NCBI GenBank assembly: GCA_009777485.1
Contig: WRLT01000002.1
Coordinates: 177,968 to 241,967 of the forward strand
DNA: 64,000 nt
Source: Bacillota bacterium
GTDB taxonomy: Bacteria; Bacillota; Clostridia; Christensenellales; Pumilibacteraceae
Direction: 5' to 3'
Below, one piece after another: positions 24,838 to 60,969 of this stretch; positions within the stretch are counted from its first letter, which is position 1; every line of letters begins with the position of its first letter. Below the pieces are notes generated by a model. It saw only the letters and a list, made by a program, of their open reading frames with translations, was not told where the DNA came from and did no database searches. The translations under genes and the position numbers were made by a program.

Positions 24838-24854
24838 TACAGCAAGAGGACGGC

Positions 24855-33010: not shown

Positions 33011-33017
33011 ACAAAAC

Positions 33018-33098: not shown

Positions 33099-33250
33099 TC
33101 ATAGTTAAAAAATATTTGTTTTTTCTTTTTTTTACGGTCATATGCTTGACAAGCTTTTTCTATTAACATATACTGTATAAGTATAACAACTACTGCAAAG
33201 GTTAAAAAATTTACGTATAAAACACAAAATTGGCACTAGGAGAAACACTT

Positions 33251-38053: not shown

Positions 38054-38178
38054 GTGAGTGATTGCAGAATTTGTCTGACGCTTAAATAGTTAAAATGTTA
38101 TAAATTAATTAGATAGTTAAAATAAAGCAAAAGAGGGGGAGAGTTTTTGTATTTGGCGAAAGGAGGATAGAAAAACTT
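38054..38178 (+). promoter_or_regulatory. Conserved promoter and leader cassette, copy 1
   Basis: …TGACGCTTAAATAG…GTTATAAATTAATTAGATAG…AAGAGGGGGAGAGTTTTTGTATTTGGCGAAAGGAGGATAGAAAAACTTATG. It is shared with the copies at 39531 and 40231. Confidence 0.6.
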
Positions 38179-38739: not shown

Positions 38740-38755
38740 TAAAAATTTTGATTGA

Positions 38756-38800
38756 AAGGTTGACGCTTAAAAAATAAATTGATATAATAAATATAAGATT
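38756..38800 (+). promoter_or_regulatory. Fourth copy of the TTGACGCTTAAA…GATATAATAAAT promoter, with a different leader, upstream of 38845
   Basis: GGTTGACGCTTAAAAAATAAATTGATATAATAAAT. Confidence 0.55.
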
Positions 38801-38844
38801 GTTTGCAACTTAAATCTACTAATTTCTGTTGAGGAGGTTTTTAA

Positions 38845-39462
38845 ATGCTTTGCAAGGACTGTAAACAAATGAATGATACAGACGCAGAAGTTTGCATTTA
38901 TTGCGAAAAGCGTTTAAAAACAAACAGCTTTACCGAAAGAAGCAACACGGAAATAAGTAAAAATGAAAATCATACGGTATGGGGAATAGCGGAAAACACA
39001 CAAAGCAAAAAGAATCTTATTCTAAAAGTAATGATTCTTTTAAGCCCAGCCATTATTTTTACAATTGGTCAATTTGTACAGCTTTTTATACGGCTTGCCG
39101 ATTCTTATCCCTCAAGCTATATAAGGCAGAATGTTTTAATTGGGTTCTTTGTAAGTTTTATTTATGAAGTATTTCTTATTATTTTATTGCCGCTGACGGT
39201 ATGTGCGATATTGTATATATTCGGAAACAAAAAATATAACCGCCGAATAATCCTATTTTTTCAAGTACTGCTGGTGCTGTCATTTACCGCAGCACTTGTT
39301 TATCCAACGCTATCTCTTATTATAGCAGGAGCGTATAATATAGAGGGCTTTGTTGCAATATCTGTTTATTTATTGGTAGTTATCTTTTTTATGATTGACA
39401 CAGCTGCGTTATTAAAAAACTCCAAAAAACACAAAAGGAGATACAAAATGAAAAAAAGTTAG
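38845..39462 (+). CDS. Membrane protein with an N-terminal zinc-ribbon (CKDC…CIYC) and 4-5 TM helices
   Basis: MLCKDCKQMNDTDAEVCIYCEK followed by hydrophobic helices. Confidence 0.55.
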   Translation: MLCKDCKQMNDTDAEVCIYCEKRLKTNSFTERSNTEISKNENHTVWGIAENTQSKKNLILKVMILLSPAIIFTIGQFVQLFIRLADSYPSSYIRQNVLIGFFVSFIYEVFLIILLPLTVCAILYIFGNKKYNRRIILFFQVLLVLSFTAALVYPTLSLIIAGAYNIEGFVAISVYLLVVIFFMIDTAALLKNSKKHKRRYKMKKS

Positions 39463-39660
39463 ATTATAGGACTGCCGTATTATTTGCGGCGTTTTTATAT
39501 CGTCTTAGGTGAAACAAAACATAATTATTTGTGAGGAATTTGTAGAATTTGGTTGACGCTTAAATAGGTAAAATGATATAATAAATTAGATAGTAAGAAT
39601 AAAACAAAAAAGAGGAGAGCTTTTGTGTTTGGCGAAAGGAGAATAGAAAAAACTATAAAA
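39449..39660 (+). repeat. About 210 bp repeat unit (cassette junction, promoter and leader), copy 2
   Basis: ATGAAAAAAAGTTAGATTATAGGACTGCCGTATTATTTGCGGCG…TTGTAGAATTTGGTTGACGCTTAAATAGGTAAAATGATATAATAAAT…GAGCTTTTGTGTTTGGCGAAAGGAGAATAGAAAAA. It is near-identical to 40144..40348. Confidence 0.65.
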
Positions 39661-40119
39661 AAAACAATAACAAAAATTTTAACAATGGGGATGATTTTAA
39701 TTATGGGATTAGGAATTTTTGCGGGGTGTGGCAACAATAAAAGGCATCCGAATTCAGACCCTGACATTGAAACAGAATTAGAAATTAAGATAAGGCAGAA
39801 CTATATTAAGAAGCTTCCAAAAAATTCAAGGGTTAAAATGAATAATCTTTGGGTTAGCAAATATTATGGCACATTTGATGAAAGTGTTGTGCTAATATTT
39901 CAAACCAGCCTATCGGAGTCTTCTATTTTGCCTGATGGTGGTCTTGGAAATATTACTAAAGAAACAATTGCAGGCTTTGAGTTTATTTTTGGCACATCAT
40001 CCTGGATTAATGTTTGGTACAATGGAAATTTTTACAGCTTACTTGATGCTTACAATGATGGACTGTTAACATCAGACGACATTGAAAGTATTTGGTTACA
40101 ACGACAATCTAAAAACTAA
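39625..40119 (+). CDS. Lipoprotein, paralog family member 2 (start ambiguous)
   Basis: Signal peptide …ILTMGMILIMGLGIFAGCGNN. The ATG used by member 1 is ATA here (…ACTATAAAAAAAAC). The frame opens at GTG 39625, or at an internal ATG at about 39682. Confidence 0.5.
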   Translation: MFGERRIEKTIKKTITKILTMGMILIMGLGIFAGCGNNKRHPNSDPDIETELEIKIRQNYIKKLPKNSRVKMNNLWVSKYYGTFDESVVLIFQTSLSESSILPDGGLGNITKETIAGFEFIFGTSSWINVWYNGNFYSLLDAYNDGLLTSDDIESIWLQRQSKN

Positions 40120-40143
40120 ATAAGATTAAGAAAAACGGAGAAT

Positions 40144-40348
40144 ATGACAATGAAAAAAGTTAGATTATGGACTGCCGTATTATTTGCGGCGTTTTTTATA
40201 TCGATTTAGGTGAAACAAAACATAATTATTTGTGAGGAATTTGTAGAATTTGGTTGACACTTTAAAAATAAGTTGATATAATAAAGTAGCTAGTAGGCAC
40301 AGGCAAAAAAAGAGGAGAAGTTTTGTGTTTGGTGAAAATAGGTTTTTC
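40144..40348 (+). repeat. About 210 bp repeat unit (cassette junction, promoter and leader), copy 3
   Basis: ATGACAATGAAAAAAGTTAGATTATGGACTGCCGTATTATTTGCGGCG…TTGTAGAATTTGGTTGACACTTTAAAAATAAGTTGATATAATAAAG…GAGAAGTTTTGTGTTTGGTGAAAATAGG. Confidence 0.65.
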
Positions 40349-41455
40349 ATGGCTAAAAAACTAACAGGAATGGTCGTTATAGCGCTAATGCTGCTTGGAT
40401 TGACGCTGTTTTCTGTAGGATGCAACCATATAAACGACTATTCGGACGGGGACGCGCCGTTTTATTTTGACGAACAGTATCTTTTTTTGAAAGTAGGCGA
40501 AACAGCCGATTTAAATATTCGTGAAATATTCAAACATAGCGGAATAAACATTAACAAGTATTCGTTGCGTAGCAGTTCGGAGTGGGTTGCTAGCGTGAAA
40601 AACGAAACAGTTACGGCACTTCGAGCAGGGAATCAAAGCATTGGCTTTATAGGTCATACAACGATTCATGCCACATTATATGATAGCAGCACCAAGAAAA
40701 AACATAATGTCCTAGTTGCCCAAGTTTTTGTAATTAATGAATCGGAAATGACTGCGGTGAGTTCAGCAGAGGATTTAATTGCAATTAAAGAGGATTTAGG
40801 CGGTTGGTACGTTTTAAAGGCTAATATCGATTTAGACGGCGCAGAGTGGCAAGGATTGGGTACTTTTACTGGGATGCTTGTGAATAGCGGGGAATTCGTC
40901 ATAAGCAACCTTTCCGGCACCACAGGATTGTTTGCTGCAAACGAAGGCTATATTAGCGGCATTATACTAGAAAATGTGTCCATTAATAAGACGTCCGACG
41001 ATGAGTTTATCCAACTTGGCACGATTGCGTCAATAAATACTAAAGGTGCAACTATCGCTAATTGCAGCGTAAAAGGTGTAATAAAATCAAGCGGTGTTAC
41101 AGGAGGGATAGTAGGCTACAATACTAGCAGCATAATCAACTGTTCGTTTGACGGAATGGTAACAAGCCAAAGCAATAGAACGGCGGATGAAATTCTTGAA
41201 AGCGAGAATTTTTATGATGTAGCGGGCGGTATCGTTGGAATAAACAGCGGAATAGTGGTACACTCAACCGCAAAAGGTCAAATTTCGTCAATGTTGATAG
41301 CGGGTGGAGTTGTCGGTATCCATTTCACGGCGATGTCAGACGGTCGGGTGGTCAATTGTGATTTTGACTTTGTTCAAGAGTTACCCAATAGAATTGTTGC
41401 CCCTATATGGGGCCGCACCATAGGTTGGGAGCAGACGCTTGTAAATAGAGTTTAG
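40349..41455 (+). CDS. Secreted or lipoprotein product with GLUG-like repeats and an Ig-like N-terminal domain
   Basis: Lipobox-like FSVGC. GGIVG-type motifs occur at several positions. The ATG at 40349 is preferred, because the leader region reads through as in the paralogs. Confidence 0.5.
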   Translation: MAKKLTGMVVIALMLLGLTLFSVGCNHINDYSDGDAPFYFDEQYLFLKVGETADLNIREIFKHSGININKYSLRSSSEWVASVKNETVTALRAGNQSIGFIGHTTIHATLYDSSTKKKHNVLVAQVFVINESEMTAVSSAEDLIAIKEDLGGWYVLKANIDLDGAEWQGLGTFTGMLVNSGEFVISNLSGTTGLFAANEGYISGIILENVSINKTSDDEFIQLGTIASINTKGATIANCSVKGVIKSSGVTGGIVGYNTSSIINCSFDGMVTSQSNRTADEILESENFYDVAGGIVGINSGIVVHSTAKGQISSMLIAGGVVGIHFTAMSDGRVVNCDFDFVQELPNRIVAPIWGRTIGWEQTLVNRV

Positions 41456-41504: not shown

Positions 41505-44500
41505 ATGAAAATAGCAAGCAAAAGTAAGAAAAAGATGGTAGGTATATTTTTAGTTTTGTGCCTTGCGGCAGCAGCAAGCCTAATCATTTTCATGCGGCCA
41601 AGTTCAACGGTCGCTCATGCATCCACAGAACTAGAGCAAAAACACATTGAATGGACAAATTCAGACATTCTGATGGACGGCGAAGGTACGATACAAAACT
41701 ATCGCACAAATCGCTATACAAACGGTGTTTCAGTTACGTCATCAGCAATGACGGTAACTGGCAATGATCCAATTATACATATAATTCCCGTGGAAGAGTT
41801 CTCAACTTTAGGGTTGAGAACATTTATGGGCGAAGAGTATGGTTGGATAATCGATGTGTTCAATGATTCATGGGGCATCCGTCGGGCGCTTATCCAAGTA
41901 ATAGATATTACTGTTAAATGGGAAAAAGTTTTAGACTACGAGTTTATGATTTCACCTTTGTTTGAGTACGAATATGCGGTAATTCCTGCAGGCACTGGAC
42001 AGGTGCGAGTAAGGCACTGCAATGTAGAGGGTCGTGTAGAGGGAGATTATGTATATACCGCGACTAATTTGCGAAACAAAACTCTAAGCTACACCAACAA
42101 CACGGGTGCGCAAAGAGTTGTTGCAATGCCTTTAATACATACACCTACAAGATTTACAGAGCGAATATCGTTTTGGGGATCAAGGAAATATAATATTCAA
42201 AACTTTTCTGTTGCAGCAGAGTTAGCTAACAGATTCGCTCCCAATCCTTGGGATACAAATTACGACTTAGACACGGATTTAGGTGCGTTCTTTTGTTTTT
42301 CGGAGTTATTATACAAGAATACGGGCATTAATGTCAGCCCCTATGATCCATGGCATACAGTAAAATTTGGTGCGTCAGTTGCGACTATTGGGTTTGATGG
42401 ACTCTTTCAATATATTGATTTATTAGTTGAGTTTTATAATTTAGTGGCAAATTCAGTAGAACCAAATGAGAAAACGTATAACGCAGTACAATATGGGGCT
42501 AGTGAATTAAGAGCTACTTATTTTGGTGATCGCTTGCAACAAAAAAGACCCCCTGATTTGCCTCTGCATGAAGATCCTGGCTATGGTAAATTGATTAAAC
42601 TTGCTTCGGTTGATGTTTTTGCAGATTTAAACAGACCTTTAAGACCACAACCATTGGATAGATATAATTCACACGGTGCAGACCACAAGGGAGGTAGATT
42701 TGGCATAGTGTGGAATGCGGAGAACTCGTCGCAATTAGTAACGACATATCAGTTTACTGTTAAAGATATGACTTTTGGTCCCACATTAAAACTTGTAAAT
42801 GGTGTTCGATATAAAAACATTGGTCTTGGTGCTGATTTGATTACTCAAAATAATGTTGTTACAGGATTTGTACCTCCCCCTAATTTCAATGGTATTTTAG
42901 AAATTCCTAATGGAGCTACAGCTATTGCTTCAAATGCTTTTGCCAACCAAGCCCAACTAACTCAAATCTTGATACCTGAATCCGTAACTACAATAGGAAA
43001 TAACGCTTTCCACGCCAACACATTGGTGAACTGGCAAGGGAACTATTCGTTTAGAGGATCACAATTTTTAGGCATTTTAGGTGGGCAGACAAGCTTTTCT
43101 TTGCCATCGACCATTGCAGGTATAAATATTACTTCAATAGCTACCGATGCTTTCTCTAACCAAACCCAGCTTTCTTACATTACCATTCCTCCAAGCATAA
43201 CCAGTATTAGCAGTTTTGCGTTTCAAGGTTGCACTGGTTTAACCTCTATTATTATACCTAAAAGTGTAACCAGTATCGGGCAAAATGCGTTTAATGGATG
43301 CCATAACTTAACCATTTTTGCCGAAGCTTCAAGTAAGCCGAATGGTTGGGATAATTTATGGAATCCGCATAATCAAACCGTAGTGTGGAGTTTTAACTCT
43401 GCCTTGCCTTTTGCAATTACAGACGGCGCGTATTATGTACTGGAAGGAGGCGAAACGGTTTTAAGACGGTATATAGGTAACGAAAGTCAATTTTCTTTAC
43501 CCGATTCTGTTGTAATTGACGGAGTTAGCCGTCCCGTGACAAGCATTATGCGGGGTGCGTTTGAGGGCGCGAATAACTTAGAGTTAATCGAATTGCCGTT
43601 TATAGGTGAAAGAGCAGACGGAACGGGTGCAACGCATTTTGGTTGGATATTCGGCTCAACGCACGCTGTTGTGCAAGGCTACCATATTCCGCAATCGCTA
43701 AAAACGGTGGAAATTGTAAATAGCGGTAATAGTATCCGAATCGAAGATGATGCGTTTCACGGTTGCGCAAATATTTGGTATATTCATATACCTGCTAATG
43801 TTACCTATATTTCTGATAAAGTTTATTTTAGTGCGTTTGAGGGCTGCTCAAGCTTAATTAAAATTATTGTTAACGGCGGAAATTTGCACTATGCAAGCAC
43901 TGATGACGGAATATTATATGATATAGAGAAAACCCGTATTATTTATGTGCCGCATGGTATTAGCGGAGATATTGAGTTGCCGTCCTCGTTAATCAGTATT
44001 TCAGAGCGGGCGTTTGAAAATCGCGTAGACATTACAAGCATTGTTATTCCCGAAAGCGTTACGCATATCGGATTAAATGCGTTTAGTAATACGGTTGTTT
44101 TGGAAATAGAGGATGACGTAATTTATGCGGGAAACTGGGCAGTAGGATTTTTGCACAAGAATGGTTATTATGACTCAAACGGTAATTTTATGTATGAAGT
44201 TACGGTTTCGCTAAGACCTGGTACTGTGGGGATTGCTGACAGGGCATTTAGTAGTGCTAATTCTTTAACAAGTATCCATCTACCTGATAGCTTAAAATAT
44301 ATCGGAAATGGGGCTTTTTGGTTTGCAACGAAATTAGCTGAAATAGACATCCCCGAAGGTGTGGTAAGTATCGGCGAGGAAGCGTTTTTGCGCTGTGATT
44401 CTTTGCGCAGTGTTAAGCTACCCGACAGCTTAACGTATCTTGGCTATCGTGCATTTTTTAACTGCGGTCGCCTTTTGGAAATAAATTTACCAATTGGCAT

Positions 44501-46856
44501 AGAACATGTAAAAGCGGGAGCATTTTTGGGTTGTTCGAACTTGGCGAAGGTCATTTTTTCTAGTGACTTAAGAGAAATTGATGCTGGAGCATTTGCAATG
44601 ATATCTGAATTGACAAGCATAGTTATACCTAATTCTGTGGAGCGTATTGGACAAGGTGCATTTCACAGTAGTTTTATAGAAACTATAAGTTTACCGTTTG
44701 TAGGTGAAAGAGCAGACGGAATGGGTGCTAGGAATTTTGATTATATATTTCGTGAGAGCGAGTTATATTCTAGTTTTTGGTTAAGACTTGATAGCGCAAC
44801 TATAATGGGTGGAGATATTTCATCGAATGCATTTAATGGTTTAGATGAGCTAACAAATGTTGTCCTTTCTAGTGGCGTAGTGAACGTAGAAGCAAACGCA
44901 TTTCAAGATTGCACCAATTTAACGATTTATGTCGAAGAGGAAAGTCAACCGCTTAATTGGGCAACTAATTGGAATTCTGGTCGCCCCGTTATATACGGTA
45001 CTACATTGTCGGTGGACACATTATATATTGAATCAATTATAAAGACTACGGATATGCATAATGGGCATGTAATTTCTGCGCCTTCACGTGCAGACCATGT
45101 TTTTAGCGGCTGGAATACGGCGACGGATGGAAGCGGCACCAACTATTTATTTACAACTCAATTGGATTACAACGCTATACCAAACGGAACTAAATTATAT
45201 ACTATGTGGGTGCATGTTTTGGATATTATTAATGTGATAAGTAATGATGAATTGATAATTGTTTGCGATAACACTTTGCCTAAATTTGAGGCAGCAGAGT
45301 TTACAATACGCGGAGTAGAGTCTTTGGCGTTTTTTTATGGCAATTCATTTGACAATACTATTTCTGAGTTTAATTTATTAGATGTGCTTCATCTTGCGCC
45401 CGAAACTTATGTGCTTGATACGTTGATTATTAAATATAGACTTAAATTTGAAGAAAGACCTTGGACAAAAAATTTTGAAAAAGAAGTATGTGCTTTATTT
45501 GGCGGTAAATTAATGCTTGACGGAATAACATATGAAATTATAAATAGTGAGCGGCACTTAAGAAATATAAGGGCAGAGGGAAATTATATTTTAACTCATA
45601 ATATAAATATCGATTCTAATTGGACACCGCTTTCAATAAATTTCAGTGGCCTATTTAATGGGAATGGGAATAGTATCACGGCTGCTAATTTAATTGTAAT
45701 ATCGGATAATTTATTTGCCAATAATAACGGAGAGATTATAAATCTAGATGACCCCTATGCTGGGCTTGATATAGTAGGCAATACCGTTACAGGCTACTTC
45801 GGCACCTCTGCCGCAATCGCTATCCCCGAAGAGGTTGACGGAATAGCGGTAACGTCTATCGCCGCAGGCGCATTCGCCGACAATACAAGCCTAACCAGCG
45901 TTTCCATTCCGCACAGCGTAACCTCTATCGGTTTAGGCGCGTTTAGCGGCACGGAGAGCCTAGAAAACCTAAGCATTCCGTTTAGCGGGCAAAACCGCAA
46001 CGGCGGCAATAACACGCACTTCGGCTACATATTCGGCGCGCAAAACATGAACGGGCAAGCCTCCTTTATTCCGCAATCGCTAAAAACGGTGCGCATAGAC
46101 GGCTTAAACGGTACGCAAATCGCCAACAACGCGTTTAACGGCATAGGCGGCGTAGAAACCGTAATCATCGCAGACGGCGTAACCACAATCGGCAGCGACG
46201 CGTTCCGCAACAATTCCGCGCTTACCTTTATAGAAATTGCCTCTACCGTTTCCAACATCGCCAACGCATTCGGCAACAGCCCCAACGCGGCGGTCAAGTG
46301 GCATTTTAACGCCGGCGCGGCGGTTAATAATTTCCGCATGAACCTAACGGAGGTTGTCATTCCCGACACCGTTACGGCACTCCCGAACAACGCCTTCCGC
46401 GACTGCGTGAACCTAGTTAGCGTAACAATCCCCGCCAGCGTAACGTCTATCGGCAACAGCGCGTTTCAAGGTTGTGTAAGCCTAACCGAAATCGCACTGC
46501 CCGCAAGTGTTACGGAAATAGGGGCGCACGCGTTTAACGGCGCAACAAGCTTAACCGACATCATTATTCCGCACGGCGTAACCACCATCCGCGACAACAC
46601 CTTTAGCGGTTGCAGCGCACTAACTAGCATTGTCATTCCCGCCAGCGTAACGCAAATCCAAAGCGACGCGTTCCGCAACTGCAACGCCTTAACTACCGTC
46701 TACTACGGCGGCGAAAGCGCGGCGCAGTTTAACGCCATAAACACAGGCAACAACGCACAGGTTGTAAACGCAACGCGCTACTATTATTCCGAAACCGAAC
46801 CCGCAACACAAGGAAACTTTTGGCACTTTGCAGACGGCGTTCCCACCGCGTGGTAA
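41505..46856 (+). CDS. Giant cell-surface protein of 1783 aa with BspA-type leucine-rich repeats
   Basis: Signal peptide. It has dozens of repeats of the form [IL]xIPxSVTxIGxxAFxxCxxLTxI. The C-terminal block YYGGESAAQFNAINTGNNAQVVNATRYYYSETEPATQGNFWHFADGVPTAW is paralogous to the C-terminus of the 2..2902 product. Confidence 0.7.
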   Translation: MKIASKSKKKMVGIFLVLCLAAAASLIIFMRPSSTVAHASTELEQKHIEWTNSDILMDGEGTIQNYRTNRYTNGVSVTSSAMTVTGNDPIIHIIPVEEFSTLGLRTFMGEEYGWIIDVFNDSWGIRRALIQVIDITVKWEKVLDYEFMISPLFEYEYAVIPAGTGQVRVRHCNVEGRVEGDYVYTATNLRNKTLSYTNNTGAQRVVAMPLIHTPTRFTERISFWGSRKYNIQNFSVAAELANRFAPNPWDTNYDLDTDLGAFFCFSELLYKNTGINVSPYDPWHTVKFGASVATIGFDGLFQYIDLLVEFYNLVANSVEPNEKTYNAVQYGASELRATYFGDRLQQKRPPDLPLHEDPGYGKLIKLASVDVFADLNRPLRPQPLDRYNSHGADHKGGRFGIVWNAENSSQLVTTYQFTVKDMTFGPTLKLVNGVRYKNIGLGADLITQNNVVTGFVPPPNFNGILEIPNGATAIASNAFANQAQLTQILIPESVTTIGNNAFHANTLVNWQGNYSFRGSQFLGILGGQTSFSLPSTIAGINITSIATDAFSNQTQLSYITIPPSITSISSFAFQGCTGLTSIIIPKSVTSIGQNAFNGCHNLTIFAEASSKPNGWDNLWNPHNQTVVWSFNSALPFAITDGAYYVLEGGETVLRRYIGNESQFSLPDSVVIDGVSRPVTSIMRGAFEGANNLELIELPFIGERADGTGATHFGWIFGSTHAVVQGYHIPQSLKTVEIVNSGNSIRIEDDAFHGCANIWYIHIPANVTYISDKVYFSAFEGCSSLIKIIVNGGNLHYASTDDGILYDIEKTRIIYVPHGISGDIELPSSLISISERAFENRVDITSIVIPESVTHIGLNAFSNTVVLEIEDDVIYAGNWAVGFLHKNGYYDSNGNFMYEVTVSLRPGTVGIADRAFSSANSLTSIHLPDSLKYIGNGAFWFATKLAEIDIPEGVVSIGEEAFLRCDSLRSVKLPDSLTYLGYRAFFNCGRLLEINLPIGIEHVKAGAFLGCSNLAKVIFSSDLREIDAGAFAMISELTSIVIPNSVERIGQGAFHSSFIETISLPFVGERADGMGARNFDYIFRESELYSSFWLRLDSATIMGGDISSNAFNGLDELTNVVLSSGVVNVEANAFQDCTNLTIYVEEESQPLNWATNWNSGRPVIYGTTLSVDTLYIESIIKTTDMHNGHVISAPSRADHVFSGWNTATDGSGTNYLFTTQLDYNAIPNGTKLYTMWVHVLDIINVISNDELIIVCDNTLPKFEAAEFTIRGVESLAFFYGNSFDNTISEFNLLDVLHLAPETYVLDTLIIKYRLKFEERPWTKNFEKEVCALFGGKLMLDGITYEIINSERHLRNIRAEGNYILTHNINIDSNWTPLSINFSGLFNGNGNSITAANLIVISDNLFANNNGEIINLDDPYAGLDIVGNTVTGYFGTSAAIAIPEEVDGIAVTSIAAGAFADNTSLTSVSIPHSVTSIGLGAFSGTESLENLSIPFSGQNRNGGNNTHFGYIFGAQNMNGQASFIPQSLKTVRIDGLNGTQIANNAFNGIGGVETVIIADGVTTIGSDAFRNNSALTFIEIASTVSNIANAFGNSPNAAVKWHFNAGAAVNNFRMNLTEVVIPDTVTALPNNAFRDCVNLVSVTIPASVTSIGNSAFQGCVSLTEIALPASVTEIGAHAFNGATSLTDIIIPHGVTTIRDNTFSGCSALTSIVIPASVTQIQSDAFRNCNALTTVYYGGESAAQFNAINTGNNAQVVNATRYYYSETEPATQGNFWHFADGVPTAW

Positions 46857-46929: not shown

Positions 46930-47255
46930 TTGACATATTTTAATAAATAGGGTAGTATATAAGCGTTACAAGCAGATGAGTAATCTCACCGTGCGGCAAG
47001 CGGCTGGCTACGGTAACGCAAAAATCAGATTTCAAAAGTGTTTTTAAAGCACTTTTTAAATACTTTTGCGGGTAGAGATAGTCATCTCTACCCGTTTTCT
47101 TTTTTTTGCCGATATCTTTTTAATAAATTTCCGTTTTTTTTTGCCCCTATTACGTAGCGTTGCTACGCTTTTGGGTCAAAAAAAATCGCAAATTTTTTTA
47201 AAAATCTATTCGGCAAAAATTGTCCCCTAAATTATCCCTAAGGAGGGTAAAGCCC
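46930..47255 (+). promoter_or_regulatory. Promoter plus infC-rpmI-rplT leader, with an attenuator hairpin (L20-type autoregulatory leader)
   Basis: TTGACA at 46930 and TAGTAT at 46953. The leader is about 300 nt and structured. The intrinsic terminator GCGGGTAGAGATAGTCATCTCTACCCG plus a T-run lies at 47068-47108, inside the leader before infC. Confidence 0.5.
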
Positions 47256-47774
47256 ATTAATTTTAAAGATGTGGAAATCAATCAAAGAATCCGCGACCGC
47301 GAGGTGCGCGTGATTGCCGCCGACGGTGCACAGCTAGGCATTATGAGCGCGGCAGACGCTAACCGTCTTGCGGATGAGAAAAATCTTGACTTGGTTAAAA
47401 TTTCGCCTACCGCCAAACCGCCCGTATGCAAGATTATGGATTTTGGCAAATTTAAGTTTGATACGCAAAAGCGCGAAAAGGAAACGCGCCGCAACCAAAA
47501 GGTTTCGGAGCTTAAAGAGGTTTGGCTTTCGATGACTATCGATAAGCACGACTTAGAAACCAAAGCAAAGCACGCGCGCAAATTTTTAGCGGCGGGCGAC
47601 AAGGTAAAGGTTTCTATCCGTATGCGCGGACGGCAAGCCGCGCACGCAACGCTGGGCGTTAAGGTAATGGAAGATTTTTATGTTTTATGCGAGGATTTAT
47701 CGGTTCAGGATAAAAAGCCGTCTACGGAGGGCAGAAGTATCATCATGATACTGGTGCCCAAAAAAGCAACCTAA
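47256..47774 (+). CDS. infC: Translation initiation factor IF-3, with an ATT start codon
   Basis: IF-3 sequence (INFKDVEINQRIRDREVRVI…). AAGGAGGG lies 8 nt upstream of ATT at 47256. A non-AUG start is characteristic of infC autoregulation. The track's upstream ATG at 47220 precedes the SD. Confidence 0.8.
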   Translation: MNFKDVEINQRIRDREVRVIAADGAQLGIMSAADANRLADEKNLDLVKISPTAKPPVCKIMDFGKFKFDTQKREKETRRNQKVSELKEVWLSMTIDKHDLETKAKHARKFLAAGDKVKVSIRMRGRQAAHATLGVKVMEDFYVLCEDLSVQDKKPSTEGRSIIMILVPKKAT

Positions 47775-48051: not shown

Positions 48052-48414
48052 ATGAGAATTAAAAGAGCGGTAAACGCGCAAAAGAAAAAAAGAAAAATAA
48101 TGAAGCTTGCCAAAGGCTACTGGGGTTCTAAATCCCGTTCGTACCGCGTCGCGCGCGAAGCGGTTATGAAAAGCTTGATGTACGCATATATCGGCCGTCG
48201 TTTAAAAAAGCGCGATTTCAGAAAGCTTTGGATTACGCGTATTAACGCGGCGGCGCGTCAAAACGGATTGTCGTATTCTAAATTTATGTTTGGTTTAAAG
48301 GCATCAGGTATAGAACTTAACCGCAAAATGCTGGCGGAAATCGCGGTTTCCGATGCGGCGGCATTCACCGCACTTGCAAATAAAGCTAAAACAGCCGTTG
48401 CAAAATTAGGTTAA
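48052..48414 (+). CDS. rplT: 50S ribosomal protein L20
   Basis: [29 protein letters not shown]…. Confidence 0.9.
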
Positions 48415-52544: not shown

Positions 52545-52579
52545 TGACAAAAGCTTTTAACTTTGTTACAATCTTTACT
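52545..52579 (+). promoter_or_regulatory. Consensus sigma-A promoter (TTGACA-17-TACAAT) for dnaN
   Basis: ATTGACAAAAGCTTTTAACTTTGTTACAATC. Confidence 0.55.
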
Positions 52580-52607
52580 ATACACACGCAAAAGGAGTTA
52601 TAGGTTT

Positions 52608-53708
52608 ATGAAATTAGTTTGCAACGGTAATGATTTAAGCGCGGCGGTGGGTCAGGTTATTAAGGCGGCCGCATCTAAAACTACCAACCCGATTTTAGAG
52701 GGCATACACTTAAAGGCGGCGGCAGGGACGCTTACGCTTACCGCTACCGATTTAGAATTAGCCATAGAAAAGCATATCCGTGCCGATGTTAAAATCGAGG
52801 GCGAAACGGTTGTGCCGGGACGCTTTTTTGCCGAGTTTGTAAAAAAACTTACGCAAGAGCAAATCGAGCTTAGCTGTACCGACAGCCGCTTAAAAATTCG
52901 GTACACCGATTCGGAGGGAACGCTGCAATGCTTACCCGCCGCCGAATTTCCGCCCGTTAAAGAGCTTTCGGACGCGCAAAAGTTTACGATTATCCGCAGT
53001 GAATTTAAAGACCTTATCCATAAAATCGCATTTTCGGTAAGCTTAGACGATGCGCGCCCGATGTTAAAAGGCGTATTGTTGGAAGTAGGCGATGTGTCGG
53101 TAACGGGCGTTGCGTTAGACGGCTACCGCTTAGCCAAATGCGTAAAGCCTATCGAAAAAACTACCGCTATGTTCAGCGCGGTAGTGCCGAGCCGCTGCTT
53201 AAACGAAATTGCGCGTATTTTAGACGATTCGTCCGACCCCGTTGAAATCAGCATTCAAAAAAATTACTTAATGGTAAATTTAGACCATACGCGCATTACT
53301 ACGCGTCTGTTAGACGGCGACTATATCAATTATAAGCAAATCATTCCTACTAATTTTGAGTCACAAGTTACCGTCCCGCGCGAGGCTTTCGAGCAAGGCT
53401 TAGAGCGCGCCATTTTATTAGCCAAAGCCGAGCGCAACAATTTGGTTAAGTTTGATATTAAAGACGATGTGATGCGCTTAGAATCCAACTCTGAAATCGG
53501 CAACATTTTAGAAAAAATTCCCGTAAAAATCAGCGGCATGGATATTACCATTGCGTTTAACGCGCGGTATTTTACCGAGCTTTTGCGCTATATCACCGTA
53601 GACCACATCGTAATCAAATTTATCAATTCGGTATCGCCCTGTATAGTCGCGCCGAGCGGCGGGGCGGAGGATTTTATGTACTTAATCCTACCCGTCCGCA
53701 TGATTTAG
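52608..53708 (+). CDS. dnaN: DNA polymerase III beta sliding clamp
   Basis: MKLVCNGNDL… beta-clamp three-domain sequence. AAAAGGAG lies 8 nt upstream of the ATG at 52608. The listed start at 52563 lies within the promoter. Confidence 0.85.
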   Translation: MKLVCNGNDLSAAVGQVIKAAASKTTNPILEGIHLKAAAGTLTLTATDLELAIEKHIRADVKIEGETVVPGRFFAEFVKKLTQEQIELSCTDSRLKIRYTDSEGTLQCLPAAEFPPVKELSDAQKFTIIRSEFKDLIHKIAFSVSLDDARPMLKGVLLEVGDVSVTGVALDGYRLAKCVKPIEKTTAMFSAVVPSRCLNEIARILDDSSDPVEISIQKNYLMVNLDHTRITTRLLDGDYINYKQIIPTNFESQVTVPREAFEQGLERAILLAKAERNNLVKFDIKDDVMRLESNSEIGNILEKIPVKISGMDITIAFNARYFTELLRYITVDHIVIKFINSVSPCIVAPSGGAEDFMYLILPVRMI

Positions 53709-53831
53709 CTGTTTCAATTTTGGCTTGAAAAGCACTACGCTTTGTTTTTTTGCGCGCTTGCGTACATCTAGGTACGCGGCACGCGCAAAAAAATAAACTG
53801 TTGTACAACTTGCACTCAAAATTGAAACAGC
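53708..53831 (+). repeat. Structured intergenic element, copy D (variant 2), between dnaN and dnaX
   Basis: Blocks CTACGCTTTG, TTGCGTACATCTAGGTACGC and AACTGTTG. The inner stem is TTTTTTTGCGCGC/GCGCGCAAAAAAA. The outer perfect 15-bp inverted repeat is GCTGTTTCAATTTTG (starting at the dnaN stop) against CAAAATTGAAACAGC. Confidence 0.7.
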
Positions 53832-53919: not shown

Positions 53920-55443
53920 ATGAGCAGCAGCTATACCGCATTGTACCGCAAATACCGTCCTAAGTCTTTTGCGGATGTTATCGGGCAGGAGCCTATTGCC
54001 GCGACGCTTACCAATCAGGTTTCGTTGGGGAGGATTAGCCATGCCTATTTATTTACGGGTTCGCGCGGGACGGGAAAAACTTCGTGCGCTAAAATTTTCG
54101 CGCGCGCGGTTAATTGCCAAAAGCCTAAAAAAGGTTCTCCGTGCGATAAGTGCGCTGCGTGCAAGGCGTTGGCAGAGCCTGCCAACATGGATATTTTAGA
54201 AATTGACGCCGCCTCTAACAACAAGGTAGACGAGGTGCGCGAAATACGCGAGCGCGTTAAGTATCTGCCCGTTAGCGGAAAGTACAAGGTATACATTATA
54301 GACGAGGTACACATGTTGACGGATTCGGCGTTTAATGCACTGTTGAAAACGCTGGAAGAGCCGCCCGCCCATGTAGTATTTATACTAGCCACTACCGAAC
54401 CGCATAAGCTGCCCGCTACAATATTGTCGCGCTGTATGCGGTTTGATTTCCGTCTAGTACCACTGGGCGTACTGACGGCACATCTGCAAAAGGTTTTCGA
54501 TTTAGAAAAAAAAGCGTACGAACAACAAGCGGCGGAGTATATTGCCGCCGCTGCCGAGGGCAGTGTGCGCGATATGCTGTCTATTGCCGACACGTGTATT
54601 CATTTTTCGGACGGCACGCTTACCCGCGCGGACGTTTTGCGCGTGCTGGGCGCGTCGGGGTTAGAACAGGTTGCCGACTTTTTTGCCGCCCTGCAAGCGG
54701 GGGATGACGGCGGCGCATTAACGCACATCGACGAATTTATTAAAAGCGGAAAGTCGGCAGGGCTTTTGGCAAAGGATACGGCGGCGTATGCGCGCGATTT
54801 ATTAGCAATTAAAACGGGGGCGCAGCAGCTGATAAGCCGCGCAAAAGAGGATATACAAAGCATGGCTGCGGCGGCGGAGTGTGCGGAAAAGGATTTTTTG
54901 GTTTACGTGATTACCGAATTTTCGCGCATAGACTCCGAGCTTAGGTACAGCGTTTCTCCGCGCATTGTGTTAGAGGCCGCCGCTTTGCGCGCCGCAAGAT
55001 TTTCCGCAGGCGGCGTTTCGCCCGTACCCGTAGCCGCGCCCGCGCCTGTGCGCACCCAAGCAAAGCCGCCGCCCGAAACCACCGTACTGCCCGTGCACAC
55101 CATCGCGGACGCAGTTAAGGCGGTTAAAGAAGAAGACGCCAAAAGCATTTGGGGGCGGCTGGTTACACGGTTTAGAAAAAGCGGCGATATGAATTTATAT
55201 ACGCTGTTGGGCGAACATTCCGATTACGTGATTGAGGGCGGCAGTTTAATAATCACTGCACAAGACGATAAGTATTTGCGCTTTTCCGACCCTTCCGCCG
55301 TTGCCGAAATCGAGCGCGCGCTGTCGGAATCGGGCATACCGTACCGCGTCCGTATAGAAAAAGCCGCGCAAGGGGTAGATATGGATAAAGAAATCGTGCG
55401 CGTGCAAAAGCTAACGGGCATAAAACCTAATATAGAAAAATAA
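53920..55443 (+). CDS. dnaX: DNA polymerase III subunits gamma/tau
   Basis: AAA+ motifs (GSRGTGKTS, IIDEVHML) and the zinc module CDKCAAC. Confidence 0.9.
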   Translation: MSSSYTALYRKYRPKSFADVIGQEPIAATLTNQVSLGRISHAYLFTGSRGTGKTSCAKIFARAVNCQKPKKGSPCDKCAACKALAEPANMDILEIDAASNNKVDEVREIRERVKYLPVSGKYKVYIIDEVHMLTDSAFNALLKTLEEPPAHVVFILATTEPHKLPATILSRCMRFDFRLVPLGVLTAHLQKVFDLEKKAYEQQAAEYIAAAAEGSVRDMLSIADTCIHFSDGTLTRADVLRVLGASGLEQVADFFAALQAGDDGGALTHIDEFIKSGKSAGLLAKDTAAYARDLLAIKTGAQQLISRAKEDIQSMAAAAECAEKDFLVYVITEFSRIDSELRYSVSPRIVLEAAALRAARFSAGGVSPVPVAAPAPVRTQAKPPPETTVLPVHTIADAVKAVKEEDAKSIWGRLVTRFRKSGDMNLYTLLGEHSDYVIEGGSLIITAQDDKYLRFSDPSAVAEIERALSESGIPYRVRIEKAAQGVDMDKEIVRVQKLTGIKPNIEK

Positions 55444-55470: not shown

Positions 55471-55794
55471 ATGAAATTCGGCGGGTTCGGGGGCGGCGGC
55501 ATGAACATGCAAGCAATGATGCGTCAAGCCCAAAAAATGCAAGAACAAATGAAACAGGCGCAAGAAGAATTAGAGGCGGCTGAGGTTGAGGGCAGCAGCG
55601 GCGGCGGTTTAGTAACCGTATCGTTAAACGGCAAAGGAAAAATGCTGGGCATTAAAATCAAGCCCGAAGCCGTAGACCCCGACGATATCGAGATGCTGGA
55701 AGATTTAATTACAGCCGCCTTTACTTCCGCATCCGAACAAGCGGAGGCGTTGGAGGCGGAAAAAATGCCCGCCGGCATGGGCGGCCTATTTTAA
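55471..55794 (+). CDS. ybaB: Nucleoid-associated protein YbaB/EbfC
   Basis: …MMRQAQKMQEQMKQAQEEL…GGLVTVSLNGKGKMLGIKI…. Confidence 0.85.
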   Translation: MKFGGFGGGGMNMQAMMRQAQKMQEQMKQAQEELEAAEVEGSSGGGLVTVSLNGKGKMLGIKIKPEAVDPDDIEMLEDLITAAFTSASEQAEALEAEKMPAGMGGLF

Positions 55795-55917
55795 CGGCAC
55801 AAATATGCCGTATACGAACTACGCTTGCCTTGCCGCCTCAGTTGTGTACATCTAGGTACACGCCCTTCGGCGGCGCGGCAACTGTTGTCCGTCTACGACA
55901 CATTTGTGCCGTTAAAA
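55789..55917 (+). repeat. Structured intergenic element, copy E (variant 3), between ybaB and recR
   Basis: CCGTATACG-AACTACGCTTGCC-TTGCCGCC-TCAGTTGTGTACATCTAGGTACACGCCCTTCGGCGGCGCGGCAACTGTTG-TCCGTCTACG. The outer inverted repeat is TTTTAACGGCACAAATATG (including the ybaB TAA stop) against CACATTTGTGCCGTTAAAA. Confidence 0.7.
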
Positions 55918-55943: not shown

Positions 55944-56531
55944 ATGAAACAATTAGACAGTATTGCTAAGTTAATCAACCGTTTTTGTAAGCTACCGGGT
56001 GTGGGGGCTAAAACGGCGCAGCGGTATGCTTACGGCGTTATCGGTATGTCCGATGAAGATGCCCAAGCTTTTTGCGATGCGATAAAAGAAGTTAAGCAAA
56101 AAGTTTGCTACTGTGAGGTGTGCGGCAATTTTGCCGATGCGCAAATCTGCGCGATTTGCAGCGTGCGCAAGCCCTCTTGCATTATAGTTGTTTCGTATCC
56201 GAAAGATGTGTTAGCGTTTGAAAAAGCGGGCGGGGTAAGCGGCGTATACCATGTGCTGCACGGCACAATTTCTCCCTTAGAGGGGCGCGGGCCTAACGAT
56301 ATCCGCATCAAAGAATTACTTGCGCGCCTAAAAGAGGGCACGGAAGAAATTATTTTAGCTACAAATCCCGATGTAGAGGGCGAGGCGACCGCTATGTATA
56401 TAGCTAAGCTTATAAAGCCTATGGGTGTGCGTGTAACGCGCATTGCGCAAGGCATTTCTATGGGAAGCGATATCGAATACGCAGACGAGGTTACGCTGCA
56501 ACGCGCCTTAGAGGGTAGAATTGTTTTGTAA
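55944..56531 (+). CDS. recR: Recombination protein RecR
   Basis: HhH region LPGVGAKTAQR, the C4 zinc finger CEVCGNF…CAIC and a Toprim domain. Confidence 0.9.
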   Translation: MKQLDSIAKLINRFCKLPGVGAKTAQRYAYGVIGMSDEDAQAFCDAIKEVKQKVCYCEVCGNFADAQICAICSVRKPSCIIVVSYPKDVLAFEKAGGVSGVYHVLHGTISPLEGRGPNDIRIKELLARLKEGTEEIILATNPDVEGEATAMYIAKLIKPMGVRVTRIAQGISMGSDIEYADEVTLQRALEGRIVL

Positions 56532-59841: not shown

Positions 59842-60531
59842 ATGGCTAACGTAAATGTATATAAGCAAACGGGCGAGAAAAAAGGCTCGGTAAAGTTGGA
59901 CGACTCGGTTTTCGGGGCGGAGTTCAACGAGCCGCTCGTGCATCAGGTAATTACGGCACAGCGCAACAACGCCCGTCAAGGCACGAAGTGCAGCTTAACG
60001 CGTACCGAAGTGCGCGGCGGCGGCAAAAAACCGTGGCGGCAAAAAGGCACGGGGCGTGCGCGGCACGGTTCTAGCCGTTCGCCTATTTGGACAGGCGGCG
60101 GTGTAGCATTCGCGCCTAAGCCCCGCGATTTTTCGCAAAAGATTAACAAACAACAACGGCGCGGCGCATTGATTTCGGTGCTGTCGGAAAAGGTAGCCAA
60201 AGACCAGTTTCTTATTATAGACGAGATCAATTTAAAAGATGTTAAAACCAAAGAAATGTCCGCAATTTTTGAAGCGTTTAAATTAGATATAAAAACGCAT
60301 ACCGTAACGGACGACGCAGGCAAAAAGGTACAAAAGGTAAGTAAGGCATTGCCGAAAATTTTACTGGTAGTAGGCGAAAACGATGCAAACGTAGTGCGCG
60401 CCGCAAAAAACATACCGTATGTAAAAACCGTTTCAGGCGCGTTGGTAAACGTATACGATTTGGTGGTAAGCGATAAATGCGTAGTTACGTTGGAGGCGGC
60501 AAAAAAAATCGAAGAGGCCTACAAGGATTAA
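59842..60531 (+). CDS. rplD: 50S ribosomal protein L4
   Basis: MANVNVYKQTGEKKGSVKLDD…. Confidence 0.9.
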   Translation: MANVNVYKQTGEKKGSVKLDDSVFGAEFNEPLVHQVITAQRNNARQGTKCSLTRTEVRGGGKKPWRQKGTGRARHGSSRSPIWTGGGVAFAPKPRDFSQKINKQQRRGALISVLSEKVAKDQFLIIDEINLKDVKTKEMSAIFEAFKLDIKTHTVTDDAGKKVQKVSKALPKILLVVGENDANVVRAAKNIPYVKTVSGALVNVYDLVVSDKCVVTLEAAKKIEEAYKD

Positions 60532-60653
60532 ACGGTTTATACGCACCGTATACGCACTACGCTTGCCTTGCCGCCTCAGTTGAGTACATCTGAGTACACG
60601 CCTTTCGGCGGCGCGGCAACTGTTGTCCGTCTACGGCACGTCTAAACCGTTTA
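60529..60653 (+). repeat. Structured intergenic element, copy F (variant 3, about 92% identical to copy E), between rplD and rplW inside the S10 operon
   Basis: CCGTATACG-CACTACGCTTGCC-TTGCCGCC-TCAGTTGAGTACATCTGAGTACACGCCTTTCGGCGGCGCGGCAACTGTTG-TCCGTCTACGG. The outer inverted repeat is TAAACGGTTTATACG (including the rplD TAA stop) against CGTCTAAACCGTTTA. Confidence 0.7.
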
Positions 60654-60678
60654 AATAAACTCATCTAAAGGAGATATT

Positions 60679-60969
60679 ATGGATATTTACGAAATCATTA
60701 AAAAGCCGATACTTACCGAAAAATCTACCGCAGGTATTGCGGTTAAAAAATATGCGTTTGTAGTAGATGTGCGCGCCACAAAAACGCAAATCAAATCGGC
60801 GGTAGAACAGCTGTTTAACGTAAAAGTCGAAAAAGTAAACACCGTAAACGTGCGCGGCAAGTTTAAACGTCAAGGCCGCAATGAGGGCTATACCTCTAAA
60901 AGTAAAAAAGCATACGTCAAGCTGAAAGAGGGCGAAAAGCCCATTCCGTTCTTTGAAGGACTGGTGTAA
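60679..60969 (+). CDS. rplW: 50S ribosomal protein L23
   Basis: [16 protein letters not shown]…. Confidence 0.9.

Follow-up and report, generated by a model that had tools for sequence, protein, structure and literature searches.

Hairpin-forming interspersed repeats with an inverted copy of the upstream flank at gene ends of gut Clostridia: a candidate mobile element with proposed completion by fold-back synthesis

A 64-kb stretch of DNA (hereafter, the window) from a metagenome-assembled genome (MAG) labeled 'Firmicutes bacterium' was found to contain six copies (A–F; five full and one short, C) of a hairpin-forming element, all on the + strand. Every copy consists of an upstream arm X, a core, and a downstream arm X′, in which X′ is a near-perfect inverted copy of 12–17 nt from the upstream flank; this X–core–X′ architecture is the new feature here. 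The copies probably represent a previously undescribed family of non-autonomous interspersed repeats hosted by uncultured gut Clostridia/Bacillota. Our best explanation (probability of approximately 0.6) is a non-autonomous mobile hairpin element that is tolerated in mRNA and integrates or matures via fold-back DNA synthesis. Empty orthologous sites in relatives, a reconstructed insertion in glf, and the decayed apex of copy F point first to mobile insertion. The copies and the genes around D, E, and F are located as follows.

21547–21674, + strand: copy A, 3′ of a GH3 glycosidase gene; 93.4 bits with the covariance model
24710–24839, + strand: copy B, at the end of an alkaline-phosphatase-like gene; 91.2 bits with the covariance model
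25950–26025, + strand: copy C, short form in glf, without the middle stem and apex
52563–53708: DnaN, three beta-clamp domains (Pfam)
53708–53831, + strand: copy D, whole; begins at the G of TAG, the stop codon of dnaN
53920–55443: DnaX (Pfam)
55471–55794: YbaB (Pfam); stop codon TAA at 55792–55794
55789–55917, + strand: copy E, whole; begins 3 nt ahead of the ybaB stop codon
55944–56531: RecR (Pfam)
59842–60531: L4 (rplD; Pfam); stop codon TAA at 60529–60531
60528–60654, + strand: copy F, whole; begins 1 nt ahead of the rplD stop codon
60679–60969: L23 (rplW; Pfam)

The start of dnaN in the gene calls of the same-species contig L011 corresponds to position 52608 of the window, and a seventh copy lies just beyond the window between rplF and rplR of the same genome (17760–17886 of L011). 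The gene identities bear out the original prediction, which had placed D, E, and F in the dnaN–dnaX, ybaB–recR, and rplD–rplW junctions, with F inside the S10 ribosomal-protein operon between L4 and L23. Tight packing and co-transcription had been claimed for all three junctions. Both hold for E and F, which account for 129 of the 149 nt between ybaB and recR and 127 of the 147 nt between rplD and rplW; the next start codon is only 18–26 nt away. The claim does not hold in the same way for D. Because the dnaN–dnaX gap is 211 nt, including 88 AT-rich nt 3′ of D, and we know of no canonical operon with this gene pair, co-transcription is only plausible there, and a common transcript of dnaN and dnaX is an assumption.

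The family consists of imperfect hairpins of 120–130 nt with invariant boxes (CTACGCTTG, GTACATCT, and AACTGTTG) and strong covariation. In the core of ~95 nt, two conserved boxes are opposed across fixed pyrimidine–pyrimidine mismatches, and a variable yet complementary middle stem connects them with the apex, a conserved GTAC–loop–GTAC. The insertion point is at the stop codon of the upstream gene or within about 14 nt of it, almost always in the orientation of that gene. In L018a and throughout this genome, the 5′ arm of each copy includes coding sequence, the stop codon, or both; the near-perfect outer arms differ from copy to copy (17, 17, 15, 16, 12 + 3, and 14 pairs; 17 in the related genome L018). 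Since X′ on the 3′ side inverts X, the whole 120–130 nt element folds as a hairpin with the stop codon in its base. The parts of the copies other than C are listed below.

21547–21560, + strand: arm X of copy A, the final 3 codons, the stop codon TAA, and 2 nt more; X′ at 21661–21674
24710–24724, + strand: arm X of copy B, 10 coding nt, the stop codon TAA (24720–24722), and 2 nt; X′ at 24825–24839
53708–53722, + strand: arm X of copy D, GCTGTTTCAATTTTG, upstream flank beginning with the final stop-codon base of dnaN; 15 perfect pairs with 53817–53831
53723–53816, + strand: core of copy D, with box CTACGCTTT, middle stem, apical GTACATCTAGGTAC, and box AACTGTTG
53817–53831, + strand: arm X′ of copy D, CAAAATTGAAACAGC, the inverted copy of X
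55789–55804, + strand: arm X of copy E, TTTTAACGGCACAAAT, with TTT and TAA, the final codon and stop of ybaB; 16 perfect pairs with 55902–55917
55805–55901, + strand: core of copy E; covariance match at 55807–55903 (102.5 bits)
55902–55917, + strand: arm X′ of copy E, ATTTGTGCCGTTAAAA
60528–60543, + strand: arm X of copy F, TTAAACGGTTTATACG, with the TAA that ends rplD; pairs with 60639–60654 over 12 perfect and 3 further positions, separated by one mismatch
60544–60638, + strand: core of copy F; covariance match at 60545–60641 (94.3 bits)
60639–60654, + strand: arm X′ of copy F, paired with X

In copy B, the outermost 17 pairs are perfect and comprise X/X′ and the terminal TG:CA pairs of the core. 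Copy D matches the covariance model at 53723–53819 (86.9 bits, E = 1e-21) and folds with −53.7 kcal/mol (z = −7.7), and copy E folds with −65.9 kcal/mol (z = −9.1). The core of F is 89% identical to that of E over 110 nt, but its apical motif is mutated to GTACATCTGAGTAC, with the loss of one pair.

The five full copies score 87–102 bits (E = 1e-21 to 5e-26, all on the + strand), which they do by construction because the covariance model was built from them. No other comparable match was found in the rest of the window with the search filters off. Independent members were detected by the model in other genomes: two in L018 (E = 2e-12 and 2e-9), two in L009 (2e-8 and 9e-8), and a second copy in L001 (1e-5). 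Every hairpin folds 7–9 standard deviations better than dinucleotide shuffles, with stems of −52 to −66 kcal/mol. Among 14 distinct copies, 87.5% of cells are paired (67.8% in shuffles), and 19 of 25 pairs are changed on both sides; none of 500 shuffles reached the observed values. A coupling small ORF of the MIRU type was rejected, as no ORF is conserved (an ATG is present in E and absent from F), and no match to parS, dif, or DnaA boxes was seen by eye.

Copy C is the sole copy with a fully reconstructed empty site.

25950–25965, + strand: arm X of copy C, part of the original coding region of glf (Q E A K K)
26009–26025, + strand: arm X′ of copy C, the inverted flank copy
26026–26047, + strand: filler of 10 nt, CGGGGGGGTT, and then the original end of glf in its displaced position, GAA TTA AAA TAA (E L K stop)

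The truncated core of this copy provides the codons I and R and a stop codon to glf. Removal of 25965–26035 gives back ...A K K E L K stop, in agreement with the C-termini of the closest Glf relatives (AKKEL followed by G, Y, or S and the stop codon) and with the DNA of L013, which reads GTG AAA AAG GAA TTG TAT TAA. The reconstructed site has no direct duplication. It also has no palindrome, and insertion into pre-existing palindromes or terminators was rejected for this reason. A direct duplication of TA or TTAA fits E and F by eye and fails for A, B, C, and D.

Here, we propose how the inverted flank copy might arise, based on the seven copies of this genome and the two of L018. A + strand of the core with a free 3′ end would snap back onto its own hairpin. 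The 3′ end would then be extended along the upstream flank and joined to the downstream DNA. Such synthesis may be target-primed or hairpin-primed and would occur during integration; a later template switch during replication is a less likely source of X′. Two copies in a Hadza-gut MAG have the same outer 14 nt (GTGACRGCGTATAC), which counts against fresh copying each time: either the flank is not recopied at every insertion or old flank copies travel along. No transposase, reverse transcriptase, or integrase domain was found in the ~55 ORFs of the window, and no mobilizing enzyme was identified in the roughly 70 kb of the genome that were read. The element would presumably be mobilized in trans. 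The lack of a direct target-site duplication and of a conserved terminal inverted repeat sets it apart from a classical MITE.

The original prediction held that the elements are not terminators and must allow read-through, and this is well supported by inference from their sequence context. An intrinsic terminator is a G+C-rich stem-loop with a U-tract directly behind it, and terminator scans match none of the six copies; the tails 3′ of the hairpins read CACGCC, ACCGAT, and ATAAAC. Genuine terminators with U-tracts do occur in the window, for example, near 33025–33060 and 47070–47110. Independent promoters of dnaX, recR, and rplW would have spoken for termination, but the intervals between the elements and their downstream genes contain no sigma-70-like site. 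RNA polymerase must therefore read through elements that lie inside mRNAs and carry no terminator features. That the elements are terminators or attenuators, with downstream genes expressed from their own promoters, is highly improbable. The stability of the stems and the weak AU-rich mini-hairpin with GTTTTT that follows D would suit this reading, but it is at odds with the features above, with the short distance from E and F to the next start codon, and with copies within the ribosomal-protein operons of several genomes.

In the relatives L007, L009, and L010, rplD and rplW abut or overlap and the C-terminus of L4 is unchanged; thus, F is a derived insertion, and transcription must cross it. 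Other genomes carry family copies in the rplC–rplD, rplX–rplE, rpsN–rpsH, and rplB–rpsS junctions. In L018, enlarged gaps filled by hairpins are found at about 10 junctions of the S10–spc cluster, and most ribosomal-protein junctions of L018 and L020 carry hairpins. The occupied junctions vary among relatives, with empty orthologous sites. Contigs L006, L011, and L012 have the same copies as the window, that is, no presence/absence polymorphism was observed between these close strains. An exact 24-base pattern scan gave three real loci in GTDB genomes (L001, L002, and L004), one match in JGI metagenomes (L005), and no match in IMG/VR. A further match in a Saprospiraceae genome (L003) was judged from its sequence, without scoring, to be due to chance, and two IMG/VR matches to a looser 20-base pattern (14–19 bits by the model) were rejected as chance. 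Searches of the window for the heptamer-array type of hairpin found none. With Rfam, only a tRNA passed the gathering threshold in the whole window, and the elements match no family; at E values up to 10, they match generic hairpin models only, far below threshold. Copy E had no blastn match in plasmids and phages. Searches of the literature by sequence and for inverted target-site duplications yielded nothing but PCR primers and papers on plant miRNAs.

These data also bear on the possibility that the mRNA hairpin is itself the selected product, acting as a 3′ exonuclease barrier, an RNase III site, or a protein-binding site that sets the relative stability or expression of neighboring cistrons, with the boxes and apex recognized by a protein in RNA. 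The extensive compensatory changes are in line with such a role, as are the boxes and apical loop, which do not vary even between distant hosts with just 52% identity in L4. Of 17 copies, 16 run in the same direction as the rRNA or gene upstream. The location at the stop codon is constant, the downstream ribosome-binding site is kept (e.g., AAAGGAG ahead of rplW), and hairpins stand at most ribosomal-protein junctions of L018 and L020. The invariance between hosts and the 16/17 co-orientation could equally reflect selection for a transcript function. However, the occupied junctions vary and their orthologous sites are empty, one family member is antisense to rplC–rplD, and three copies stand in tandem 3′ of a 5S rRNA gene. 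The apex of F has decayed, and the outer arm appears to stem from a templated DNA event rather than stepwise compensation. Reading the transcribed strand from the pair changes was attempted and rejected: G·U-type (44) and A·C-type (45) pairs are balanced, so that neither strand is favored as an RNA would predict. We therefore consider a host-selected RNA element unlikely as the primary explanation, although it is the strongest of the alternatives. Within the mobile-element reading, the elements may plausibly also influence RNA stability or processing, and any such effect could be incidental. The original prediction is supported in part: well for read-through, whereas the roles that it put forward in mRNA processing or stability or as protein-binding sites are candidates. 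As RNA, the very stable stem-loops would be expected to stop 3′-to-5′ exonucleases or to be cleaved by a double-strand-specific RNase, and blocked decay or cleavage would uncouple the flanking cistrons.

The fixed mismatches are T·C, T·T, and C·C on the + strand, which correspond to purine–purine mismatches on the − strand. Because of this mismatch type, the − strand folds 2.5–22 kcal/mol better in all six copies of the window as well as in the four from the pattern scans (L001, L002, L004, and L005). Extrahelical bases mark one strand of attC sites and of IS200/IS605 ends, and the fixed mismatches resemble them. The hairpin or cruciform, or the duplex boxes, might thus serve the host at the DNA level as a binding or recombination site (a REP-like site for gyrase or nucleoid proteins, or attC-like single-strand recombination), with only an incidental relation to the transcript. 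The fixed mismatch type, the more stable − strand, and the uniform orientation of the copies in this genome, perhaps set by the direction of replication, would fit. On the other hand, the ends have no attC core sites (RYYYAAC/GTTRRRY), dnaN, rplD, and the other neighboring genes are not cassettes, the window encodes no recombinase or RAYT, and the element is 3–5 times the size of a REP. A host function of this kind is improbable, more so than the RNA-level one.

The mobile hairpin element remains the preferred reading, and it would have several consequences. The copies represent a limit case of operon tolerance: stem-loops of >120 nt and about −60 kcal/mol stand between genes that abut or overlap in relatives (rplD–rplW) and have not destroyed the operon, and nearly all ribosomal-protein junctions are occupied in sister lineages. 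Known transposition chemistries would hardly yield the X–core–X′ architecture; to our knowledge, the target-site duplication is direct in every known transposase class. The inverted upstream-flank copy of near-constant length and the one reconstructed empty site with filler point to polymerase-dependent fold-back integration, and this insertion signature offers a testable handle on the spread of such repeats. More speculatively, the hairpin core could exemplify a new mode of bacterial DNA mobility, in which it integrates by stop codons and completes itself via snap-back synthesis on its own stem, leaving an inverted target-site duplication of a fixed ~15 bp; related elements with heptamer-array arms might then have colonized most ribosomal-protein cistron junctions in sister lineages. 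Annotation is affected as well, since genes are cut short or given a new end by the elements; Glf, for example, lacks its final three residues. They put stop codons in all three frames, which matters in annotating gut metagenome-assembled genomes.

Among known repeats, the family is most readily compared with ERIC/IRU of enterobacteria and yersiniae and Correia (NEMIS) of Neisseria. These are interspersed non-autonomous imperfect palindromes of about 100–155 bp, often located between genes of the same operon and by stop codons; they are co-transcribed, and the resulting long RNA hairpins influence mRNA stability or serve as RNase III substrates. The elements here likewise are long imperfect palindromes interspersed inside transcription units (ybaB–recR, rplD–rplW, and rplF–rplR) beside stop codons. 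Unlike ERIC and Correia, whose terminal inverted repeats are conserved and whose TA duplication is direct, they have copy-specific termini, internal conserved parts, and an inverted flank duplication of 12–17 nt, and they share no sequence similarity with these families. The same features distinguish them from MITEs: the outermost 12–17 nt are wholly different among copies, conservation starts subterminally (TGYRCGTGAT/CTGACGCACA), and the flanks are inverted copies, not direct target-site duplications.

REP, BIME, and REPIN sequences are similar in being extragenic palindromes at gene 3′ ends, of high copy number and transcribed with the upstream gene. A REP is recognized as a single-strand hairpin with a GTAG tag, and box 1 here contains GTAG on the − strand, but not flanking a short palindrome. 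A REP has 20–40 nt and a GTAG or CGTC tag, and a REPIN combines two conserved inverted REPs with a variable center; the unit of 120–130 nt here, with variable ends and a conserved center, is the opposite. In copy E, both GTAG motifs are on the same strand, whereas those of a REPIN are on opposite strands, and the RAYT transposase that pairs with REP/REPIN is not encoded in the window. The attC sites are also imperfect hairpins (57–141 nt), lying immediately behind an ORF in the same orientation, in which structure and fixed unpaired bases define the site more than sequence does and one strand is active. In contrast, the ends of A–F lack the R″ (RYYYAAC) and R′ (GTTRRRY) core sites, with partial likenesses only (e.g., GTTAAAA in E) that are not common to the copies, and the neighbors are housekeeping genes with no integrase.

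The closest likeness to X′ itself may be the quasi-palindrome of the Ripley type, in which template switching or fold-back priming is reported to write a perfect reverse complement of nearby sequence in one event and thereby to make or extend a hairpin (PMC10710096, PMC7954356). X′ resembles the product of such an event. Quasi-palindromes of this type are made by a sporadic mutational process, whereas here every copy shows the same type of event, with a near-constant length, where its core ends on the 3′ side.

The six element copies of the window (A–F) are imperfect hairpin repeats of 120–130 nt, with copy C as a short form. All lie on the + strand, as do their flanking genes. Gene identities assigned with Pfam bear out the three junctions named in the original prediction: dnaN–dnaX holds copy D, ybaB–recR copy E, and rplD–rplW copy F.

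Element copies and Pfam-identified genes at three junctions
21547–21674, +, copy A, 3′ of a GH3 glycosidase gene
24710–24839, +, copy B, overlapping the stop codon of an alkaline-phosphatase-like gene
25950–26025, +, copy C (short form), inside the glf 3′ end
52563–53708, +, DnaN (start probably 52608, from the gene call on the same-species contig L011)
53708–53831, +, copy D, dnaN–dnaX junction
53920–55443, +, DnaX
55471–55794, +, YbaB
55789–55917, +, copy E, ybaB–recR junction
55944–56531, +, RecR
59842–60531, +, L4
60528–60654, +, copy F, rplD–rplW junction
60679–60969, +, L23

The covariance model R1, built on the five full copies, gave 87–102 bits on these same copies, and with the filters off no further match above 23 bits was found on the + strand of the window. 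On the opposite strand of the same loci, R1 scored only 29–38 bits, so the polarity of the element is clear. Every copy forms a single long hairpin (−52 to −66 kcal/mol as + strand RNA; z −7.1 to −9.4 against shuffles) composed of five parts. The outermost part is a copy-specific, nearly perfect stem of ~14–17 pairs. It is followed by a subterminal conserved segment, which is TGYRCGTGAT../..CTGACGCACA in copies A, B, C, and G (the organism's seventh copy, just beyond the window) and ..CCGTATACG/CGTCTACGR.. in E and F. Box 1 (CTACGCTTG) then lies opposite box 2 (CAACTGTTG), with six Watson–Crick pairs, an invariant G·T, and invariant T·T and C·C mismatches. The middle stem differs among subfamilies with complementarity kept (CCTTGCCGCC/GGCGGCGCGG, TTTTTTTGCGCGC/GCGCGCAAAAAAA, and GGAAAGCCG/CGGCTTTCC), and the apex, GTAC-ATCTAG-GTAC, is conserved. 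The apex of copy F has drifted from CTAGG to CTGAG with the loss of one stem pair, as expected for a copy freed from constraint.

Among 14 distinct copies from seven genomes, 87.5% of the cells were paired versus 67.8% in shuffles, and 19 of 25 pairs had changes on both sides; the observed values were reached by none of 500 shuffles. Pairing fell to 28–47% when the 3′ partners were slid. The − strand folds better by 2.5–22 kcal/mol in the six window copies and in four copies from the pattern scan (L001, L002, L004, and L005). Pairs specific to the + strand (G·U) number 44 and those specific to the − strand (A·C on the + strand) 45, so the better fold is not a G·U signal; it arises because the fixed mismatches are pyrimidine–pyrimidine on the + strand and purine–purine on the − strand. 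The comparison thus gives no evidence of selection on the transcript of either strand, and maintenance at the DNA level would explain the covariation equally well.

All seven copies of the organism (A–G) share the layout X–core–X′, in which a conserved core (~95 nt, truncated in C) is preceded by an upstream flank and followed by an inverted copy of that flank. X′ measures 14–16 nt from the conserved core end ...GCACA, and X includes sequence of the upstream gene in seven of seven copies: A and B take in the final codons along with the stop, C has coding sequence alone, D has just the third base of the stop codon, and E, F, and G have the whole stop codon and the 0–3 bases ahead of it. In L018, a contig from another genome, the copy 3′ of rplX pairs X with X′ perfectly over 17 bp, and the paired stretch takes in ATT GTA TAG, the final two L24 codons with the stop. 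X is native to the gene, which identifies X′ as the copy. In other genomes X′ can be shorter (11 nt in L005) or shared (GTGACRGCGTATAC, common to L002 and L004), so the element may carry along flank copies from earlier events.

Copy C allows the empty site to be reconstructed completely. The window glf gene reads GCT AAA AAA, then 71 nt (25965–26035), then GAA TTA AAA TAA (E L K stop). Without the 71 nt, a normal glf end is restored, with 14 of 18 positions identical to orthologous DNA of L013 (AAA AAG GAA TTG TAT TAA); Glf ends in ...ILSALQEAKKIR in the window and in ...ILSAL..AKKEL[G/Y/S] in the closest relatives. The insert consists of a truncated core, ATTTTTTTAGCCTCCTG, and a 10-nt filler, CGGGGGGGTT, in that order, and ATTTTTTTAGCCTCCTG is the exact reverse complement of native glf coding sequence, CAGGAGGCTAAAAAAAT, just upstream. 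Insertion into a pre-existing palindrome is excluded for this copy. At the site of copy F, rplD and rplW abut or overlap in L007, L009, and L010 (...TCATGA, ...TAATG), whose L4 proteins are 71–76% identical to that of the window, and the rplW ribosome-binding site GAGGAGG sits within rplD. The L4 C terminus (...IEEAYK[D/S/A]*) is the same in all three and the window. From this comparison of the junctions, the 147-nt spacer of the window is derived.

A strand that reads X–core, with a free 3′ end where the core stops, could fold onto the core's own stem, be extended on X to give X′, and then be joined to downstream DNA; the G-rich filler of copy C would fit an untemplated or end-joining step. 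The extension might occur during integration, either as target-primed synthesis templated by RNA or DNA or as polymerase extension once an HUH-type enzyme has made the 5′ joint. Alternatively, the flank could have been copied once the element was in place, by a template switch during replication. That X′ recurs, and at a nearly constant length, favors copying during integration. No candidate mobilizing enzyme was found in the window. That the inverted flank duplication represents a truly new integration mechanism is doubtful, with perhaps one chance in four.

Two observations concern individual arms. A 12–13-nt tandem duplication, GGCGAAGCGC(T)AA, lies at the GH3 gene end (21534–21562), directly ahead of arm X of copy A and extending into it; the core of this copy also starts with GGCG. 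The 5′ arm of copy F (60530–60551) is 82% complementary over 22 nt to an rplD segment 100 nt upstream (60412–60433, codons IPYVKTV), probably by chance, since the window has similar pairs elsewhere.

Insertion points fall between 12 nt upstream and 14 nt downstream of the stop-codon end, even where the native spacer was 60–100 nt (A, D, and G). Much of this placement can be accounted for by selection against insertions into the downstream ribosome-binding site or 5′ UTR, without any need for active targeting. Of 17 family members, 16 share the orientation of the upstream gene, or of the 5S rRNA in L001; the sole reversed member is antisense between rplC and rplD in L005. This bias is nominally significant (~3 × 10−4), is confounded with replication direction, and includes non-independent copies from the same genome.

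Copies D, E, and F are unchanged in same-organism contigs from two other assemblies. Copy G occupies the rplF (L6)–rplR (L18) junction (L011 17760–17886; R1 E value 6.5 × 10−14), its hairpin starting at the rplF TAA. The L4 of the window organism is MCL2061690.1, and the nearest other L4 proteins among 5.8 billion sequences are only 76% identical. A scan of 185,579 reference genomes with an exact 24-base pattern gave three real loci, of which one is in a human-gut Clostridia MAG and two are in a single Hadza-gut Clostridia MAG; the pattern gave one locus in JGI metagenomes and none in IMG/VR. Diverged members were found in relatives by R1: at rplX–rplE and rpsN–rpsH in L018, 3′ of a PfkB-family gene and at rplB–rpsS in L009, and, as a weak match, at rpsN–rpsH in L007. 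R1 also found a second copy in L001. A canonical copy lies at rplC–rplD in L005 (734–852), whose host L4 is 52% identical to that of the window. In L001 (4200–4700, − strand; the human-gut MAG), two full copies and one partial copy are arranged in tandem immediately 3′ of a 5S rRNA gene and its terminator, a context that is not protein-coding. No match was found in Rfam, plasmids, phages, or the literature searched by sequence.

None of the six window copies is directly followed by a T-run, and scans of the window found no terminator-like or promoter-like site at or just after any of them; the real terminators of the window are ordinary hairpins with T-runs. The gap to the next start codon is 26 nt for E and 24 nt for F. 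Copies occur in ribosomal-protein operons of five genomes, and the S10–spc cluster of L018 carries hairpins of 126–215 nt at ~10 junctions. Together, these features point to read-through, which would be the sole tenable reading. The earlier proposal that the elements are not terminators and allow read-through thus stands as a deduction from sequence; co-transcription of dnaN and dnaX across copy D is an assumption of that proposal. Separately, a 40-nt unit with a canonical intrinsic terminator (GCGCACCG...CGGTGCGC, then TTTTTT) is tandemly duplicated at 33015–33102.

Host relatives from termite-gut samples (L4 71–74% identical) have a second type of junction hairpin, which occupies the majority of their intergenic sites, almost all ribosomal-protein junctions among them.

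Second-type hairpins
L013: 950–1170, 2998–3145, 4072–4186, 5948–6047, 6825–6988, 9538–9687, 11453–11577, 12232–12376
L014: 12250–12408
L018: 10690–20115
L020: 2209–11920

In each arm, a heptamer or octamer particular to the site is repeated in tandem, as in (TGATAAA)n, (AGTGTAC)n, and (TTAGGAA)n. The two arms mirror each other, begin at the stop codon, and enclose a center with a common motif (CGGAT/CGGT ... CCACAA). The heptamer at the L3–L4 junction differs between two strains. R1 did not match these hairpins.

The window has several other features. A defense or restriction-modification island (6685–14821) comprises a 23S-rRNA-IVP-family and a DMP19-like protein (6685–7580), a large D12-class N6-adenine methyltransferase (7981–9837), three ORFs without Pfam matches, and, after these ORFs, a C5 cytosine methylase (12879–13865) adjoining a HaeIII-type endonuclease (13865–14821). 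Paralogous small ORFs without Pfam matches (38179–38739, 38845–39462, and 39625–40119, within 38062–40337; the start of 40325–41455 may be a fourth) share a ~110-nt upstream region with a TTGAC..N17..TATAAT-like promoter and a leader, GAGGAGAG..TTTTGTGTTTGGCGAAA. An AT-rich hairpin with 42-nt arms (47117–47203), without a match in Rfam, lies just upstream of infC (47220–47774; rplT, 48052–48414) and may be the leader of the infC–rpmI–rplT operon; it includes GCTACGCTTT by coincidence. Two very large BspA-type leucine-rich-repeat proteins (248–2902 and 41505–46856) are the source of most direct-repeat families (D1–D4, D9, and D11).

Compared with known systems, the element family lacks the conserved terminal repeats and direct duplication of MITEs, the core sites of attC, and the U-tract of terminators, and it departs from REP/REPIN in size and conserved ends. 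Functionally closest are ERIC/IRU, Correia, and REP/BIME, which are co-transcribed palindromic repeats at gene ends.
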